Assembly: GCF_000027125.1 (NCBI RefSeq)
Contig: NC_017626.1
Length of the DNA: 64,000 bases
Source of the DNA: Escherichia coli 042
GTDB taxonomy: Bacteria; Pseudomonadota; Gammaproteobacteria; Enterobacterales; Enterobacteriaceae
Reading direction: 5' to 3' (one strand)
Positions 47,736 through 51,920 of the stretch are shown one piece after another (positions within the stretch are counted from its first letter, which is position 1; each line of letters starts with the position of its first letter). The position numbers and the translations under genes are program-made. The notes beneath the pieces are model-generated. The model ran no database searches and was not told the DNA's origin. It worked only from the letters and a program-made list of their open reading frames with translations.

Positions 47736-48170
47736 TTACAGCCTCTGTAACGGATTATCAGCCCTGGCATCTTCCGACGGCACCTCCTGCCGCCCCCACG
47801 CCCTGCTGTATACCCCGGTACCGCAGCGTGGGCAGCACTTTTCCCCCTCATAATCTTCGTCACACATCACACAAAACCACTTTCTCACCTTCACCGTATA
47901 ATCCGGAACCGTCATGCCCTGCAGATGCAAACGACGGGCCTCTTTCTCTGCCGGGTCAAGCCAGGTACATCGCAGCAGGATTTTTTCAGCGACAGTCATC
48001 TGGTCATGTTCAAACCACGGTGGTTGTCCGTCATTGCCCCGCTGAAGTGTTAACGGGCATCCACAGGACACACAGCACAAAACGTCCTGTCGGTTGTGCT
48101 TCGCAGCTTCTTTCGCCGTAACAAAATGGCCTTTGCTGTCATTCGCCATATAACAGTTCAGAATTCGCAT
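47736..48170 (-). CDS. Cys-rich putative zinc-binding protein (paralog B, ~144 aa)
   Basis: MRILNCYMANDSKGHF...CCVSCGCPL...PWFEH...WFCVMCDEDYEGEKCCPRCGTG; ATG at 48168-48170 preceded by AGGAGG; overlaps stop of paralog A by 13 bp. Confidence 0.6.
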   Translation of the reverse strand: MRILNCYMANDSKGHFVTAKEAAKHNRQDVLCCVSCGCPLTLQRGNDGQPPWFEHDQMTVAEKILLRCTWLDPAEKEARRLHLQGMTVPDYTVKVRKWFCVMCDEDYEGEKCCPRCGTGVYSRAWGRQEVPSEDARADNPLQRL

Positions 48171-48565
48171 ATTTCCTCCTGAGTTGTCCGGGGAATACTG
48201 AATCCTCCGGTCTGGCAGTGTGTGCAGTACTGCTCCCCATAATAATCGTGGTGACATTGTCTGCAGTGCCAGCTGGCTTTACGCACCACGGGTAAGGCAT
48301 CCGGTACGAATTGCTGCAGACGTTTAATCAACTGTATTTCTCTGCGCTCCGGCCTGACATAAGGGCACTGTTGACCGTGCTCTGTCAGCCTGTCGTCAGT
48401 GTGTTCAAACCAGGGAAGTTCAGTTTCGTATTGCGGATGGTATCTGAGTGCACTGCCACACAAGTGGCAGGTGTAGTTAGCATAAGGTGCGGCCTGTGCA
48501 GTACGGGCGCCCGTCAGACGTCCGTTGCCATCAAGAGCGATAAAGGATTTTGCGTACATAGTCAT
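48158..48565 (-). CDS. Cys-rich putative zinc-binding protein (paralog A, 135 aa)
   Basis: MTMYAKSF...CHLCGSAL...PWFEH...WHCRQCHHDYYGEQYCTHCQTG; same motif architecture as paralog B. Confidence 0.6.
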   Translation of the reverse strand: MTMYAKSFIALDGNGRLTGARTAQAAPYANYTCHLCGSALRYHPQYETELPWFEHTDDRLTEHGQQCPYVRPERREIQLIKRLQQFVPDALPVVRKASWHCRQCHHDYYGEQYCTHCQTGGFSIPRTTQEEICEF

Positions 48566-48818
48566 ATACCTCAGCCGCCAGACGACACGCAGGCAACAGC
48601 CGTCCCGGTACGGGCAGCGTGGTCAGGGTGTGAATGGCGGTTCAGTTAAAATCTGGACTGGAGTTTGGGTAAAGCAGGCTGGTTGCTGTTACAGCACTGT
48701 GGTTGTCACACAATGGAACACTGACGTAAAAAACAGTCAGTGGGCGAGTGGATACATCGTTGCTGCCAGACAACAACCCATACTTTTGGTTTGCCGGATA
48801 TTGGCGCGCCAGTCGTGC

Positions 48819-49424
48819 TCAACTCCGGCTACAGCCAAAATTGCGCTCACCGGTGCAGTGAGCTTTGGTATGCTCCTTCGCCAGATAGTCAGCACGTTCC
48901 AGCACTTGCTGAAAGCCGGTGTCATCATTACGCGCCAGCCACACCGCCGGCCAGGCCGGAAAATGCACCAGCGTGGCATGGCACCCGACATCCACTCCCA
49001 GGGCACTGCACCACGCCTGTTTAATCATCCCGGCCAGAGACTCCGGAGCGCGGTAATCACCGGCACGACACCAGGTATCCCGGTTGACCAGCAGCATCAG
49101 GTGATAGTGTTTTTTACCTTTGCACTCCCCAAACTCCCGGGCCCAGACGTAATGCAGGGTTGTGGGATGCACGCGTTTACCTTCCCGATGCTTACGTTTC
49201 TGGTAAGCGTCGATTCGGGCTTTCAGGGCATTGATGAAGCGGGATATCACAGCTGCGTCCGTTGCTGCCGGTACATCCGGGAGACGCAGGTCAACCCGCA
49301 ATGCCGTCAGGCGGGGATGAACATTCAGTGCGTGCCGCACCGTCTCACGAATACGTTGCTGCCAGAAGGGGTTGTATTTGTAGGTCATGGTTAAATCTCC
49401 GTATGGTTCATACGGAATAGCCAC
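48819..49424 (-). CDS. Hypothetical protein (201 aa); possibly inovirus Gp2-like family (tentative)
   Basis: Supplied ORF MAIPYEPYGDLTMTYKYNPFWQQRIRETV...; upstream of the Cys-rich pair on the same strand. Confidence 0.5.
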   Translation of the reverse strand: MAIPYEPYGDLTMTYKYNPFWQQRIRETVRHALNVHPRLTALRVDLRLPDVPAATDAAVISRFINALKARIDAYQKRKHREGKRVHPTTLHYVWAREFGECKGKKHYHLMLLVNRDTWCRAGDYRAPESLAGMIKQAWCSALGVDVGCHATLVHFPAWPAVWLARNDDTGFQQVLERADYLAKEHTKAHCTGERNFGCSRS

Positions 49425-49586
49425 GTCGTAAAAAATACGCAGAGTCCCTGAAGTGACCTCCGGCAGGACACTGTCTCAGGCACTCTGTGATAACCCGAAC
49501 GGTCGTCTCCGGACTGACGGTTGAATTTTCAGCGTCGTTTTTTAATGTAAAAAACCGGTTACGGGTAAGGCTGTGAGGAGGGAGTG

Positions 49587-49787
49587 ATGGTGATACGCAA
49601 AAAGAAGTGCAGGGACTGTGGAAACGCGATTACTCATAATACAGTGTGTTGCCCGTATTGTGGTTCTGTCGACCCCTTCGGCTACTACCGGAATACAGAC
49701 CGTATCGTTACCATACTGCTGGCGCTGATTATTGTGGTCCTGCTGACTACTGTCAGCGTCAGTGTGTGTATACTGTGTAGCTGGTGA
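49587..49787 (+). CDS. Small zinc-ribbon membrane protein (66 aa)
   Basis: CRDCGN...CCPYCGS followed by one hydrophobic helix IVTILLALIIVVLLTTVSVSV; GGAGGGAG SD before ATG 49587. Confidence 0.45.
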   Translation: MVIRKKKCRDCGNAITHNTVCCPYCGSVDPFGYYRNTDRIVTILLALIIVVLLTTVSVSVCILCSW

Positions 49788-51016
49788 GATAACGGTTCAT
49801 GTATCCCCTGAGCTGACAGTGTACCGTGTATATTAAGCGTAACCGACAGGTTCTCCTTCATACCATATTAAATTTTCCAGGGATTGCCGCTGCCTTATTT
49901 CGTCCCATACAGGAAAACTCATCTGGGTTTCTGACAAATACGCGAAACTCACAGCCCCTCAATATCAACCACACGTTGTAAGCCGGTAATACCTGAAAAT
50001 CAGCCTATTACCGCCCACGCCTCCGGCACCATTCCCTTTTGATTTCGAATTCTTTGTTGTCGCTATACCGCTTAATGTTCCCGGTCCTCCGGTGCAGATA
50101 ACACCGGAGTCATCGTAGCGCTGCTTCAATATTCAGGTGACATATTTCCAGACGGAAGCCGGCGCGCGATCGTAAAGTTTGTTCATTGTCAGTTCTGCCA
50201 GCCGGTTGTCAACGGCAGAGTTAAAGGCTTCCAGCTCCGCAAGGGTAAGTTTATAACGCGTGTGGGAATTCACTTTTCCCGCGTCTCCTGACGTATTACG
50301 GGCTGCCACTTACCAGGTGTCCCGCAATACAGCCTTAGTGTTCCGTTATCGGGGATCCGGACGCACCGCAACAACCGGGGAAGTATTTCTGGTTTAGAGC
50401 AGTGTCAAGAGGGATTTCTCAGCCCCTCACTCACCGGCTCAGTCTCAGGGCAGGAGCATTAATACGCTCAGTTCATGTCTTATACAGGAATGGGCACAGG
50501 GGGAGCTGGCGTGTCACTGCTGATTTTACGCATCAGCGTTCATGTATCTGCACTCTGATACATGAACGATTCACAGCGCTCTGTTACCGGAGAGATTTAC
50601 TCTCTTAGCTTACTCTGGCAAATCCTTTACGTTACTCTCTGATGACTTCTTATATTTATAATACCAATCAGACAGCCTTATCCCATCGGTGATATCAGTC
50701 TCCTCCTCGCCAGGAACGGGCTGACTCACTGTAACCACCTCCGAAAACAACTCTGCAATTATCAGAACGCCTGCTTCTCTCCCTGTCCTCACGAAAACTA
50801 TCCCCTCTTTATCGCGCGTGCGTGCGGAAGCATCTTTTCGCAACAACCACCCGGTATACCGGTACGGCTCAGCCACCGCAACCTCCCCGTTTATCTCCTG
50901 GCGGTCACATTCCCGATTATTTTTTACGTTTCTCCCCGGTTGTTATGCCGGTGAAGGTGGCGCGCTGTTTTCATGACCACACCGGCTGGTTTAACAACAT
51001 CCGGAGGAACATTCTC

Positions 51017-51223
51017 ATGGCTACCCCAGTTTCACTGATGGATGACCAGATGGTCGACATGGCATTTATCACTCAACTGACCGGCCTGACAGATAAGTGG
51101 TTTTACAGGCTCATCAGGGATGGGGCCTTTCCGGCTCCCATCAAGCTGGGCCGCAGCTCCCGCTGGCTGAAAAGTGAAGTGGAAGCCTGGCTGCAGGCGC
51201 GTATTGCACAGCCCCGCCCGTAA
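51017..51223 (+). CDS. alpA: AlpA-family prophage transcriptional regulator
   Basis: MATPVSLMDDQMVDMAFITQLTGLTDKWFYRLIRDGAFPAPIKLGRSSRWLKSEVEAWL; GGAGG SD 9 nt upstream. Confidence 0.8.
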   Translation: MATPVSLMDDQMVDMAFITQLTGLTDKWFYRLIRDGAFPAPIKLGRSSRWLKSEVEAWLQARIAQPRP

Positions 51224-51311
51224 TTTCTGACCGTTATCCGTTCACCCGCAGCAGACGTAATCCCCGGCCTGCCGGCGGCATTCTGCTGCCTGTTATATCC
51301 CCGTGAGGAAT

Positions 51312-51920
51312 ATGAAAATGAAACAACAGTATCAGACCCGCTACGAATGGCTCCACGAAAGCTACCAGAAATGGCTGACCGGCTTCACCCGGCACGCCGT
51401 ATCCTGGGGCGTGTGTCATCCGAATATCTACTACTTCCATAATCTGACGCCCGGTTGGGTGTCATTCAATGGTGAAAAACCGGAGATTGCCATCGTACCC
51501 CAGAGCCTGCACCGGCTGATTTATGGCCCTGACAAACGGGCCACGCCGCCCCTGGATGATGATCTGATTGTGAATTTATGCACCAGTGAACATCTGCTGG
51601 TTCATCATCCGATGCTGGAAGGCATTCTCCTGTCTGAATGTGAACGTCTGAGGCAGCGTTCTCTGGCAAATAAACTGATCAGCCTCTTCCGTCAGTTTGG
51701 TGGCACGGAGTTGCGCCTCAAACTGGTCTGGCTTTGCTGGCTTGATTTAATGACCGGAAACAGCCTTGAAGACTGGAAAGAGAACCTGAAACGGAAATCA
51801 GAAAAAGAGCTGGAGGAATGGATCATCAACCGTCAGAGGCAGAGCGCAGCACTGACGGATCTGATGGATCAGTACGTGCTCCTGGCATACCGCACAACGG
51901 TTGACGATAGCCGCAACTGA
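51312..51920 (+). CDS. Hypothetical protein (~203 aa), island cargo
   Basis: Supplied ORF; start codon among clustered ATGs at 51312-51320 is uncertain. Confidence 0.45.
   Translation: MKMKQQYQTRYEWLHESYQKWLTGFTRHAVSWGVCHPNIYYFHNLTPGWVSFNGEKPEIAIVPQSLHRLIYGPDKRATPPLDDDLIVNLCTSEHLLVHHPMLEGILLSECERLRQRSLANKLISLFRQFGGTELRLKLVWLCWLDLMTGNSLEDWKENLKRKSEKELEEWIINRQRQSAALTDLMDQYVLLAYRTTVDDSRN

Follow-up and report, generated by a model that had tools for sequence, protein, structure and literature searches.

A predicted zinc-ribbon membrane protein encoded by SRL-type islands of Escherichia coli and its relatives on conjugative elements

Background

The tail-anchored inner-membrane proteins ElaB, YqjD and YgaM, which are about 100 amino acids (aa) long, helical and encoded by chromosomal core genes, have a cytoplasmic N-terminal domain, one helix at the C-terminus and nearly no periplasmic tail. 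Other small single-helix membrane proteins of Escherichia coli are the type I toxins, such as Hok, Ldr, TisB, ShoB and ZorO, which are frequently borne on mobile elements and unannotated; to our knowledge none of these contains a zinc ribbon, and all have a cognate antisense or divergent small RNA (sRNA) and a translationally occluded mRNA. Here we describe a 66-codon open reading frame (ORF) at positions 49587-49787 (plus strand) of a 64,000-nucleotide stretch of E. coli 042 DNA (assembly GCF_000027125.1, contig NC_017626.1), the whole of which is hereafter termed the window. The predicted product of this small ORF has two CxxC motifs followed by a C-terminal hydrophobic helix, and thus resembles the ElaB/YqjD/YgaM class in layout while being unrelated to it in sequence. 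It appears to differ from the type I toxins in that neither an sRNA (by Rfam) nor an occluding 5' fold was detected.

The same order of a knuckle followed by a helix is also seen in several generic families of 55-85-aa zinc-ribbon proteins, including DUF2116 ('probable treble clef'), Zn_ribbon_1/3, DZR and PHROG 38187, 10292 and 14275. The matches to these are weak and all fall under the curated cut-offs (for DUF2116 22.2 bits against 26.8, and this with distant relatives only), and unlike the small protein these families lack a DPFG-xx-R motif. As none of them has a known function, the likeness says nothing about mechanism.

A further small four-cysteine protein that is encoded by an E. coli island and annotated as 'hypothetical' is DanI (WP_001298030.1) of the uropathogenic E. 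coli strain UTI89, a 69-aa zinc protein from a pathogenicity island, which antagonizes DanR (bioRxiv 10.1101/2025.06.10.658900). As a candidate relative, to which the DUF2116 matches had pointed, DanI was rejected, because its sequence (MADSADIAYENEQ...CYNCGEPV...CDGDC, from UTI89) is by eye unlike that of the small protein and contains no hydrophobic segment. It also differs in its LytTR-regulator neighbour, in its position within the island and in its prevalence (~7% of E. coli against ~65% for the small ORF), and no danR-like LytTR-regulator gene adjoins the small ORF. By analogy DanI may be regarded as a precedent for a function in partner binding. The best explanation overall, to which we assign a probability of roughly 0.6, is that the small ORF is a genuine gene of SRL-type islands, the product of which is a predicted tail-anchored zinc ribbon that would bind a partner at the membrane.

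Results and discussion

Sequence features of the small ORF

The ORF runs from an ATG at 49587 through 66 codons to a TGA at 49785-49787 and encodes MVIRKKKCRDCGNAITHNTVCCPYCGSVDPFGYYRNTDRIVTILLALIIVVLLTTVSVSVCILCSW. Its signals and parts are:

49576-49581, plus strand: perfect Shine-Dalgarno sequence AGGAGG, 5 nt before the ATG of the small ORF
49608..49661, plus strand: predicted zinc-ribbon core, codons 8-25, CRDC-x10-CPYC (C8-x2-C11-x10-C22-x2-C25)
49671..49691, plus strand: juxtamembrane motif DPFGYYR, codons 29-35, found in the distant family as DPFG-xx-R
49704..49784, plus strand: predicted C-terminal membrane anchor, codons 40-66, 27 hydrophobic residues

The original prediction for this locus, made from the letters of the DNA, had described a 66-aa ORF at 49587-49787 with a strong Shine-Dalgarno sequence and, in its product, a CxxC...CxxC knuckle followed by one hydrophobic helix, and all of these were recovered: the knuckles are formed by C8/C11 and C22/C25, the helix by residues 40-66, and AGGAGG lies 5 nt from the ATG. 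The alternative start given by the ORF lister, GTG 49584, is only 2 nt past the Shine-Dalgarno sequence and is for this reason unlikely, making ATG 49587 the likely start; the start chosen by the RefSeq annotation pipeline (PGAP) is the same ATG. Among 96 metagenomic copies, the most frequent 12-mer upstream of the small ORF is GAGGAGGGAGTG. The N-terminus of the protein is basic (R4, K5-7) and precedes two CxxC knuckles with a short, predicted hairpin spacer, as in zinc ribbons; the linker from the ribbon to the hydrophobic stretch reads DPFGYYRNTDR. The 19-residue Kyte-Doolittle maximum of 2.99 falls at residues 40-58 and hydrophobicity continues through W66, and a single C-terminal hydrophobic helix of at least 19 residues is found both in this profile and in the AlphaFold2 model discussed below.

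ORFs of at least 30 aa are plentiful in this DNA, with 61 overlapping a 5.5-kb stretch. The cysteine pattern CxxC...CxxC, by comparison, occurs in just one of the 212 small ORFs (40-120 aa) of the window, namely the present one. In 30 Markov-simulated windows a mean of 0.3 ORFs showed the pattern, and none had a membrane helix after it. A chance origin of these features is thus unlikely.

Codon-level evidence for a conserved gene

Nei-Gojobori ratios of nonsynonymous to synonymous substitution rates (dN/dS) were computed on eight diverged copies of the small ORF. For codons 2-40 they lie between 0.05 and 0.29 in most pairs, at dS 0.3-2.9, with higher values in pairs among the close alleles L004, L005, L006 and L008, one of which has a degenerate knuckle. 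Mismatch rates at codon positions 1, 2 and 3 are 0.13, 0.15 and 0.36 in the ribbon half as against 0.37, 0.27 and 0.37 in the tail. In the 18 intact enteric members 22 positions are invariant, these being the four cysteines (C8, C11, C22, C25) and 18 others, among them H17-N18-T19 and G32-Y33-Y34-R35-x-T37-D38-R39. The hydrophobic tail shows dN/dS values of 0.5-1.9 between three allelic classes, which differ by 32-51% in DNA and yet remain gap-free, hydrophobic and of 64-66 codons in total length; T at the second codon position, which specifies hydrophobic residues, is retained in 16-19 of 25-27 tail codons. Beyond the stop codon the classes become unalignable. Losses of the start codon appear to be compensated: an abundant allele with ATG changed to ATC retains an AGGGAG Shine-Dalgarno sequence and its next codon, GTG, can act as the start, while another allele with deletions over the start has a new in-frame ATG. 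Given the codon-phased substitutions, the preservation of frame and length in the tail and the compensated start losses, the codon-level evidence indicates that the small ORF is a real, translated-type gene, conserved and under purifying selection, and not merely a conserved regulatory block. Lack of conservation, which the original prediction had named together with a missing translation signal as grounds for abandoning it, is thus not what was found, the ribbon half in particular being under purifying selection.

The contrary view, that what is conserved here is regulatory DNA, a 5' leader or an origin belonging to the adjoining divergent gene of the YagK/YfjJ family (also called 'inovirus Gp2 family', here Gp2-family) and that the ORF is fortuitous, draws on the 198-bp intergenic region between the two. 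This region exceeds the ORF in conservation (p = 0.10 against 0.22; third codon positions in the small ORF have a mean pairwise distance of 0.36, the intergenic region one of 0.10), and its minus-strand RNA is strongly structured, folding far better than shuffled sequences (z = -4.7). Moreover, the BLAST similarity of diverged copies ends near codon 40. Against this stand the codon-phased substitutions, low dN/dS and invariant cysteines, the survival of hydrophobicity and length across 32-51% DNA divergence, the sharing of the protein motif by unrelated genera in the absence of DNA similarity, and the failure of the simulated windows ever to give the cysteine pattern together with a helix. We give this view hardly any weight and regard it as effectively refuted by the codon-level evidence.

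An enteric branch of a wider family on mobile elements

The small protein matches no curated family above threshold in Pfam, NCBIfam, PHROGs or PADLOC. Its best zinc-ribbon match scores 16.5 bits against a cut-off of 23.2 in Pfam and 16.6 against 32 in NCBIfam, and the sub-threshold families considered were zf-ChsH2, UPF0547, Zn_ribbon_3, DZR, DUF2116 and rubre_like_arch. In a profile search of 1.84 billion representatives, only enteric variants were recovered below E = 1e-10. Beyond these, at E-values of 1e-5 to 1e-3, we found small proteins of the same layout which additionally share DPFG-xx-R directly after the second knuckle, giving the pattern CxDC-x10-CxxC-x3-DPFG-xx-R followed by a helix. 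Their alignment (A3) has no gaps and does not vary at C, C, C, C, D, P, F, G and R, and the four cysteines are invariant in all distant relatives. A profile-profile comparison of 18 enteric and 25 distant sequences with hhalign gave a probability of 98.8% and E = 8e-17.

Back-translation of the motif gave a DNA pattern of fixed length, worth about 43 bits, with an estimated ~0.06 chance hits in 298 Gb. In species-representative genomes it gave eight matches, from Thiotrichales, Thalassocella, Rubrivivax, Methylobacillus, Janthinobacterium, a Burkholderiaceae metagenome-assembled genome, Collimonas and Variovorax, and all eight proved to be ORFs of 57-82 aa with ribbon, DPFG and membrane helix. 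Metagenomes contain at least 120 motif loci; among the matches listed, 96 are of the enteric type and 24 distant. One of these 24 is a contig-truncated enteric copy, and a helix is present in 22 of the 23 others, the exception being a truncated ORF. Most distant members carry an extra C-terminal segment of 15-25 residues, G-x-Φ-T-P-x-x-Φ-x-x-F (Φ, hydrophobic), which the enteric proteins lack. In the gapless alignments A3 and A5 the small protein agrees with the family of 57-85 aa in motif, spacing and helix. It is thus an enteric, shortened branch of an uncurated family found on mobile elements of Beta- and Gammaproteobacteria.

The distant relatives sit on integrative and conjugative elements (ICEs) and conjugative plasmids. 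Their neighbours include AcaB, a single-stranded DNA-binding protein (SSB), topoisomerase III (TopB), a TraF peptidase and PilL2 of PFGI-1-class ICEs, and further the T4 coupling protein, TrbI, DotM and ParA. In about three quarters of 36 non-enteric loci (L024, L025, L026, L029, L016, L021, L039, L055, L069, L095, L115, L123 and others) the small gene converges with and overlaps the 3' end of a gene for a protein of ~150-170 aa, here termed p166, with the conserved motif ID..I..LV..MN..G..T.ASCQGHG..PPYV.F. Searches of p166 against Pfam, NCBIfam and PDB returned nothing beyond a weak TYW3-like stretch. The overlap is confined to the C-terminal codons of the small ORF, and the ribbon, the codons of which lie outside it, is therefore not a shadow of the opposite strand. 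A p166 hidden Markov model detected no homologue in the window (best E = 1.5), and the convergent gene of the enteric islands is hha instead of p166. The DPFG ribbon protein, as the membrane arm, and p166 might form a hitherto unrecognized two-gene module of conjugative elements, from which the enteric orphan, found about twice in each genome of most pathogenic E. coli, was re-wired to the YagK/YfjJ module or to island excision or replication, although we consider this scenario rather improbable. Possible modes of action for such a module would be a switch coupled by antisense, a pairing of toxin and immunity, and tethering in transfer or replication.

Prevalence, annotation and source island

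The original prediction had hinted that the gene might be unannotated, and in this it was mistaken: RefSeq holds a PGAP entry for exactly this ORF (WP_001297219.1, 'hypothetical protein'), and other sources name the product a 'zinc-ribbon domain-containing protein' or 'predicted nucleic acid-binding Zn ribbon protein'. At least 1000 contigs carry its sequence unchanged. The ORF table of the SRL island of Shigella flexneri from 2001 has no entry between orf39 (YfjJ-like) and orf40 (Hha) (PMC6980539), from which it appears that the small ORF was overlooked in older annotation. In K-12 no gene is annotated beside yfjJ or yagK, the two YagK/YfjJ genes at which the annotation was consulted. Our literature search found no paper on the small gene, and papers on 'inovirus Gp2' mention the neighbouring gene only.

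DNA matches were obtained in ~3500 of 5426 complete E. coli genomes (about 65%), with a median of two copies (some 6500 copies in all), nearly all of them chromosomal, and the region is 100% identical in E. coli chromosomes such as NZ_CP025892.1. Carriers include ST131, ST648 and APEC O18. Each of the 75 clusters recovered by the protein search belongs to the Enterobacteriaceae (E. coli, Shigella, Salmonella, Klebsiella), and the enteric peptides had no match in the species-representative genomes of GTDB. We also considered a phage gene and rejected this, since phage genomes are nearly devoid of the enteric gene (one partial match) and true plasmids rarely carry copies: only eight plasmid records contain the small ORF, several of them megabase-sized and probably chromosomes. 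The two contigs with it in IMG/VR are both fragments of E. coli islands.

The island around the small ORF carries fec, virK/capU, IS66, an AlpA-like gene, a YeeP-type GTPase, Ag43, KlcA, YeeS and CbtA/CbeA, and its gene order is that of the Shigella SRL pathogenicity island. The window as a whole also resembles an SRL-type island, with the fec operon, virK-capU-shf-lpxM, a group II intron and copies of IS66, IS3 and IS1; Ag43, KlcA, YeeS and CbtA/CbeA represent the SRL-type backbone in it (compare locus L014). A preprint on the evolution of strain Nissle reports an in vivo gain in copy number involving an integrase and a Gp2-family gene (10.1101/364505), which hints that modules with an integrase or Gp2-family gene can amplify.

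Decay and mosaic alleles

Among the lesions found in disrupted copies of the small ORF are C-terminal frameshifts, an insertion and the loss of 1 nt from the A5 run at codons 5-7. The A5 run (49599-49607, AAAAAGAAG), which encodes KKK, is a recurrent frameshift site: an identical 1-nt deletion inactivates the gene in the unrelated strains L034 and L035 and is present in metagenomic copies too, and L008 likewise has a deletion at this run.

Comparison of whole loci (48819-49787 of the window against L004, L005 and L009) places a break between alleles near codon 40 of the small ORF. L005 and L009 are 2% apart in the Gp2-family gene and 30-43% in the small ORF, and the corresponding figures for the window and L004 are 2.5% and 45%. 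As the Gp2-family genes are near-identical and the small ORFs divergent, recombination evidently reassorts the tail of the small ORF and the downstream segment relative to the block formed by the Gp2-family gene and the intergenic region.

Predicted structure, topology and role

AlphaFold2, run on the small protein with an alignment of 24 sequences, predicts a beta-hairpin at the first knuckle, with strands at residues 5-7 and 14-16, and a helix at residues 33-65, the latter with a predicted local distance difference test score (pLDDT) of about 91 (mean over the protein 79). A fold search against PDB returned no significant match to the small protein; the top Foldseek matches, all below significance, are generic zinc ribbons, in which 21-28 residues superpose at 1.1-1.7 A. 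The net positive N-terminal domain (R4, K5-7, R9, R35 and R39; positive-inside rule) and the need of a Cys4 site for a reducing compartment both point to a cytoplasmic ribbon, and we infer an N-in/C-out, tail-anchored inner-membrane protein. The helix would serve as a tail anchor with nearly no periplasmic part, and the linker, being only about 10 residues long, would place the ribbon at the cytoplasmic face of the membrane.

Selection has acted on the ribbon and the DPFG-R motif and hardly on residue identity in the tail, suggesting a generic anchor and a function in partner binding. We therefore suggest, tentatively and at clearly less than even odds for this specific mechanism, that the helix is only an anchor and that the ribbon and DPFG-R surface binds a partner at the membrane. 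Instead of forming a pore, the small protein would tether or sequester this partner, presumably one of the element's own proteins or nucleic acids. In the ICE branch the p166 product would be the obvious partner candidate; the enteric islands have no such gene.

Several observations weigh against a membrane-tethered, partner-binding ribbon. The confidence of the AlphaFold2 model is moderate over the ribbon (pLDDT 70-78), and zinc binding is proposed from the cysteine motif. Roughly 7-10% of the sampled copies are frameshifted or interrupted, which implies that the gene is dispensable, and allele L005 lacks Cys25. A consensus scan found no sigma-70-like promoter in the intergenic region and no terminator around the small ORF. 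Finally, the small ORF does not co-vary with the Gp2-family gene, the loci being mosaic, which disfavours the Gp2-family protein as a tightly co-evolving partner.

The decay could also be read as that of a relic, i.e. a truncated orphan of the ICE pair of p166 and small ORF, which hitch-hikes with the Gp2-intergenic block and has little or no present function. This would agree with the lack in the enteric proteins of the C-terminal extension G-x-Φ-T-P-x-x-Φ, with the absence of a p166 homologue from the window, with the frameshifted copies and the allele with a degenerate knuckle, and with the failure of the enteric peptides to match GTDB species-representative genomes. Yet purifying selection on the ribbon is seen between enteric paralogues whose synonymous sites are saturated, the frame has been rescued after loss of the start codon, and over 90% of the sampled copies are intact across thousands of genomes; a relic thus seems decidedly doubtful to us.

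The fast evolution of the tail, on the other hand, is as much expected of a small membrane-damaging peptide as of a generic anchor, and so also counts against the partner-binding reading. In such a type I-toxin-like peptide, which could act as an abortive-infection or addiction effector, the tail would be active and the ribbon would regulate or target it. That the ORF stands alone on mobile elements as a small gene with a hydrophobic product, placed on the strand opposite to its neighbours, with disrupted copies fairly common, would suit a toxin, and the convergent overlap with p166 in the ICE branch would allow antisense control. A promoter-like site also lies antisense within the ORF, a sigma-70-like CTGACA-17-AATAAT (49756-49728, minus strand; 10 of 12 matches) in the tail-coding part. 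This site is the sole promoter-like match in 1 kb; with one found and 1.1 expected it is at chance level, and it lies in the tail region, which is not conserved between the allelic classes. The strongest constraint, moreover, is on the soluble ribbon and not on the tail. The perfect, unsequestered Shine-Dalgarno sequence is unusual for type I toxins, and the 5' region folds like shuffled sequences (z = -0.8). No Rfam RNA was detected over 48500-51500 and no conserved antisense element was found. There is also no PADLOC match for the small ORF or its neighbours, and with about two copies per genome the gene has no evident cognate antitoxin. Taken together these points make a toxin unlikely, and we retain a tethered, partner-binding ribbon as the preferred reading.

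Neighbouring genes and intergenic region

The features flanking the small ORF in the window are:

48819..49388, minus strand: gene of the YagK/YfjJ family ('inovirus Gp2 family'), Rep-like, PF11726 at E = 5e-48
48158..48559, minus strand: zinc-ribbon gene 1 of the 'Cys-rich operon', DUF7828 and Zn_ribbon_11
47736..48170, minus strand: zinc-ribbon gene 2 of the 'Cys-rich operon', DUF7828 and Zn_ribbon_11
50133..50255, minus strand: Hha/YmoA-family remnant, convergent with the small ORF
49389..49586: divergent intergenic region of 198 bp between the small ORF and the Gp2-family gene

The small ORF had been described as divergent from a Cys-rich operon. Its orientation on the plus strand agrees with this, but the gene that actually adjoins it in divergent orientation, on the minus strand, is the Rep-like YagK/YfjJ-family gene, which itself is not Cys-rich. 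The latter is divergent from the small ORF in all enteric loci read with upstream sequence, and the enteric copies lie on tRNA-type islands. In the usual enteric order two DUF7828 and Zn_ribbon_11 genes lie behind the YagK/YfjJ gene, and an hha-family gene is convergent with the small ORF. In the window the two genes at 47736-48559, downstream of the Rep-like gene, are tandem overlapping paralogues. No match to the PADLOC v2 defence models was obtained with six proteins of the locus, including the small ORF and its neighbours.

The hha-family gene is a truncated pseudogene in the window and intact (49-70 aa) in other islands. As no terminator is predicted between them, transcripts of the small ORF may read through into hha in antisense. 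Just downstream of the hha remnant a block of roughly 50 bp (50028-50075, CACCATTCCCTTTTGATTTCGAATTCTTTGTTGTCGCTATACCGCTTAA), lying within a 54-aa minus-strand ORF at 49965-50129, is conserved across otherwise unalignable island variants; it may represent the 3' untranslated region or the terminator of hha, or else a small RNA or ORF. The intergenic region contains a perfect 8-bp hairpin, TCCGTATG-GTT-CATACGGA (49398-49416), which overlaps the GGAG Shine-Dalgarno sequence of the Gp2-family gene. This hairpin, or the wider structure of the region, may serve in translational control, or may provide the Rep-like protein with an origin or a nick site.

Conclusions

The existence of the ORF is already recorded in databases, and a claim of discovery would be only partly new. 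What is new here is the codon-level case for a gene, its high prevalence, its allelic and mosaic behaviour, and its membership in a family that has a conserved partner gene outside the enteric bacteria. The family link supplies the Cys4 and DPFG-R motif, a candidate partner in the ICE branch and a natural allelic series. With its wide distribution the small ORF ranks among the most widespread uncharacterized small proteins of the E. coli accessory genome, and it is part of the conserved backbone of SRL/CP4-type islands, which bear virulence and resistance cargo. The absence of annotation beside the two YagK/YfjJ-family genes of K-12 may explain why it has remained unstudied. Should the protein have no measurable effect, it would stay an ordinary hypothetical protein; if it indeed tethers or sequesters a factor of the island at the membrane, the maintenance of these islands would gain a further layer, formed by a small protein.

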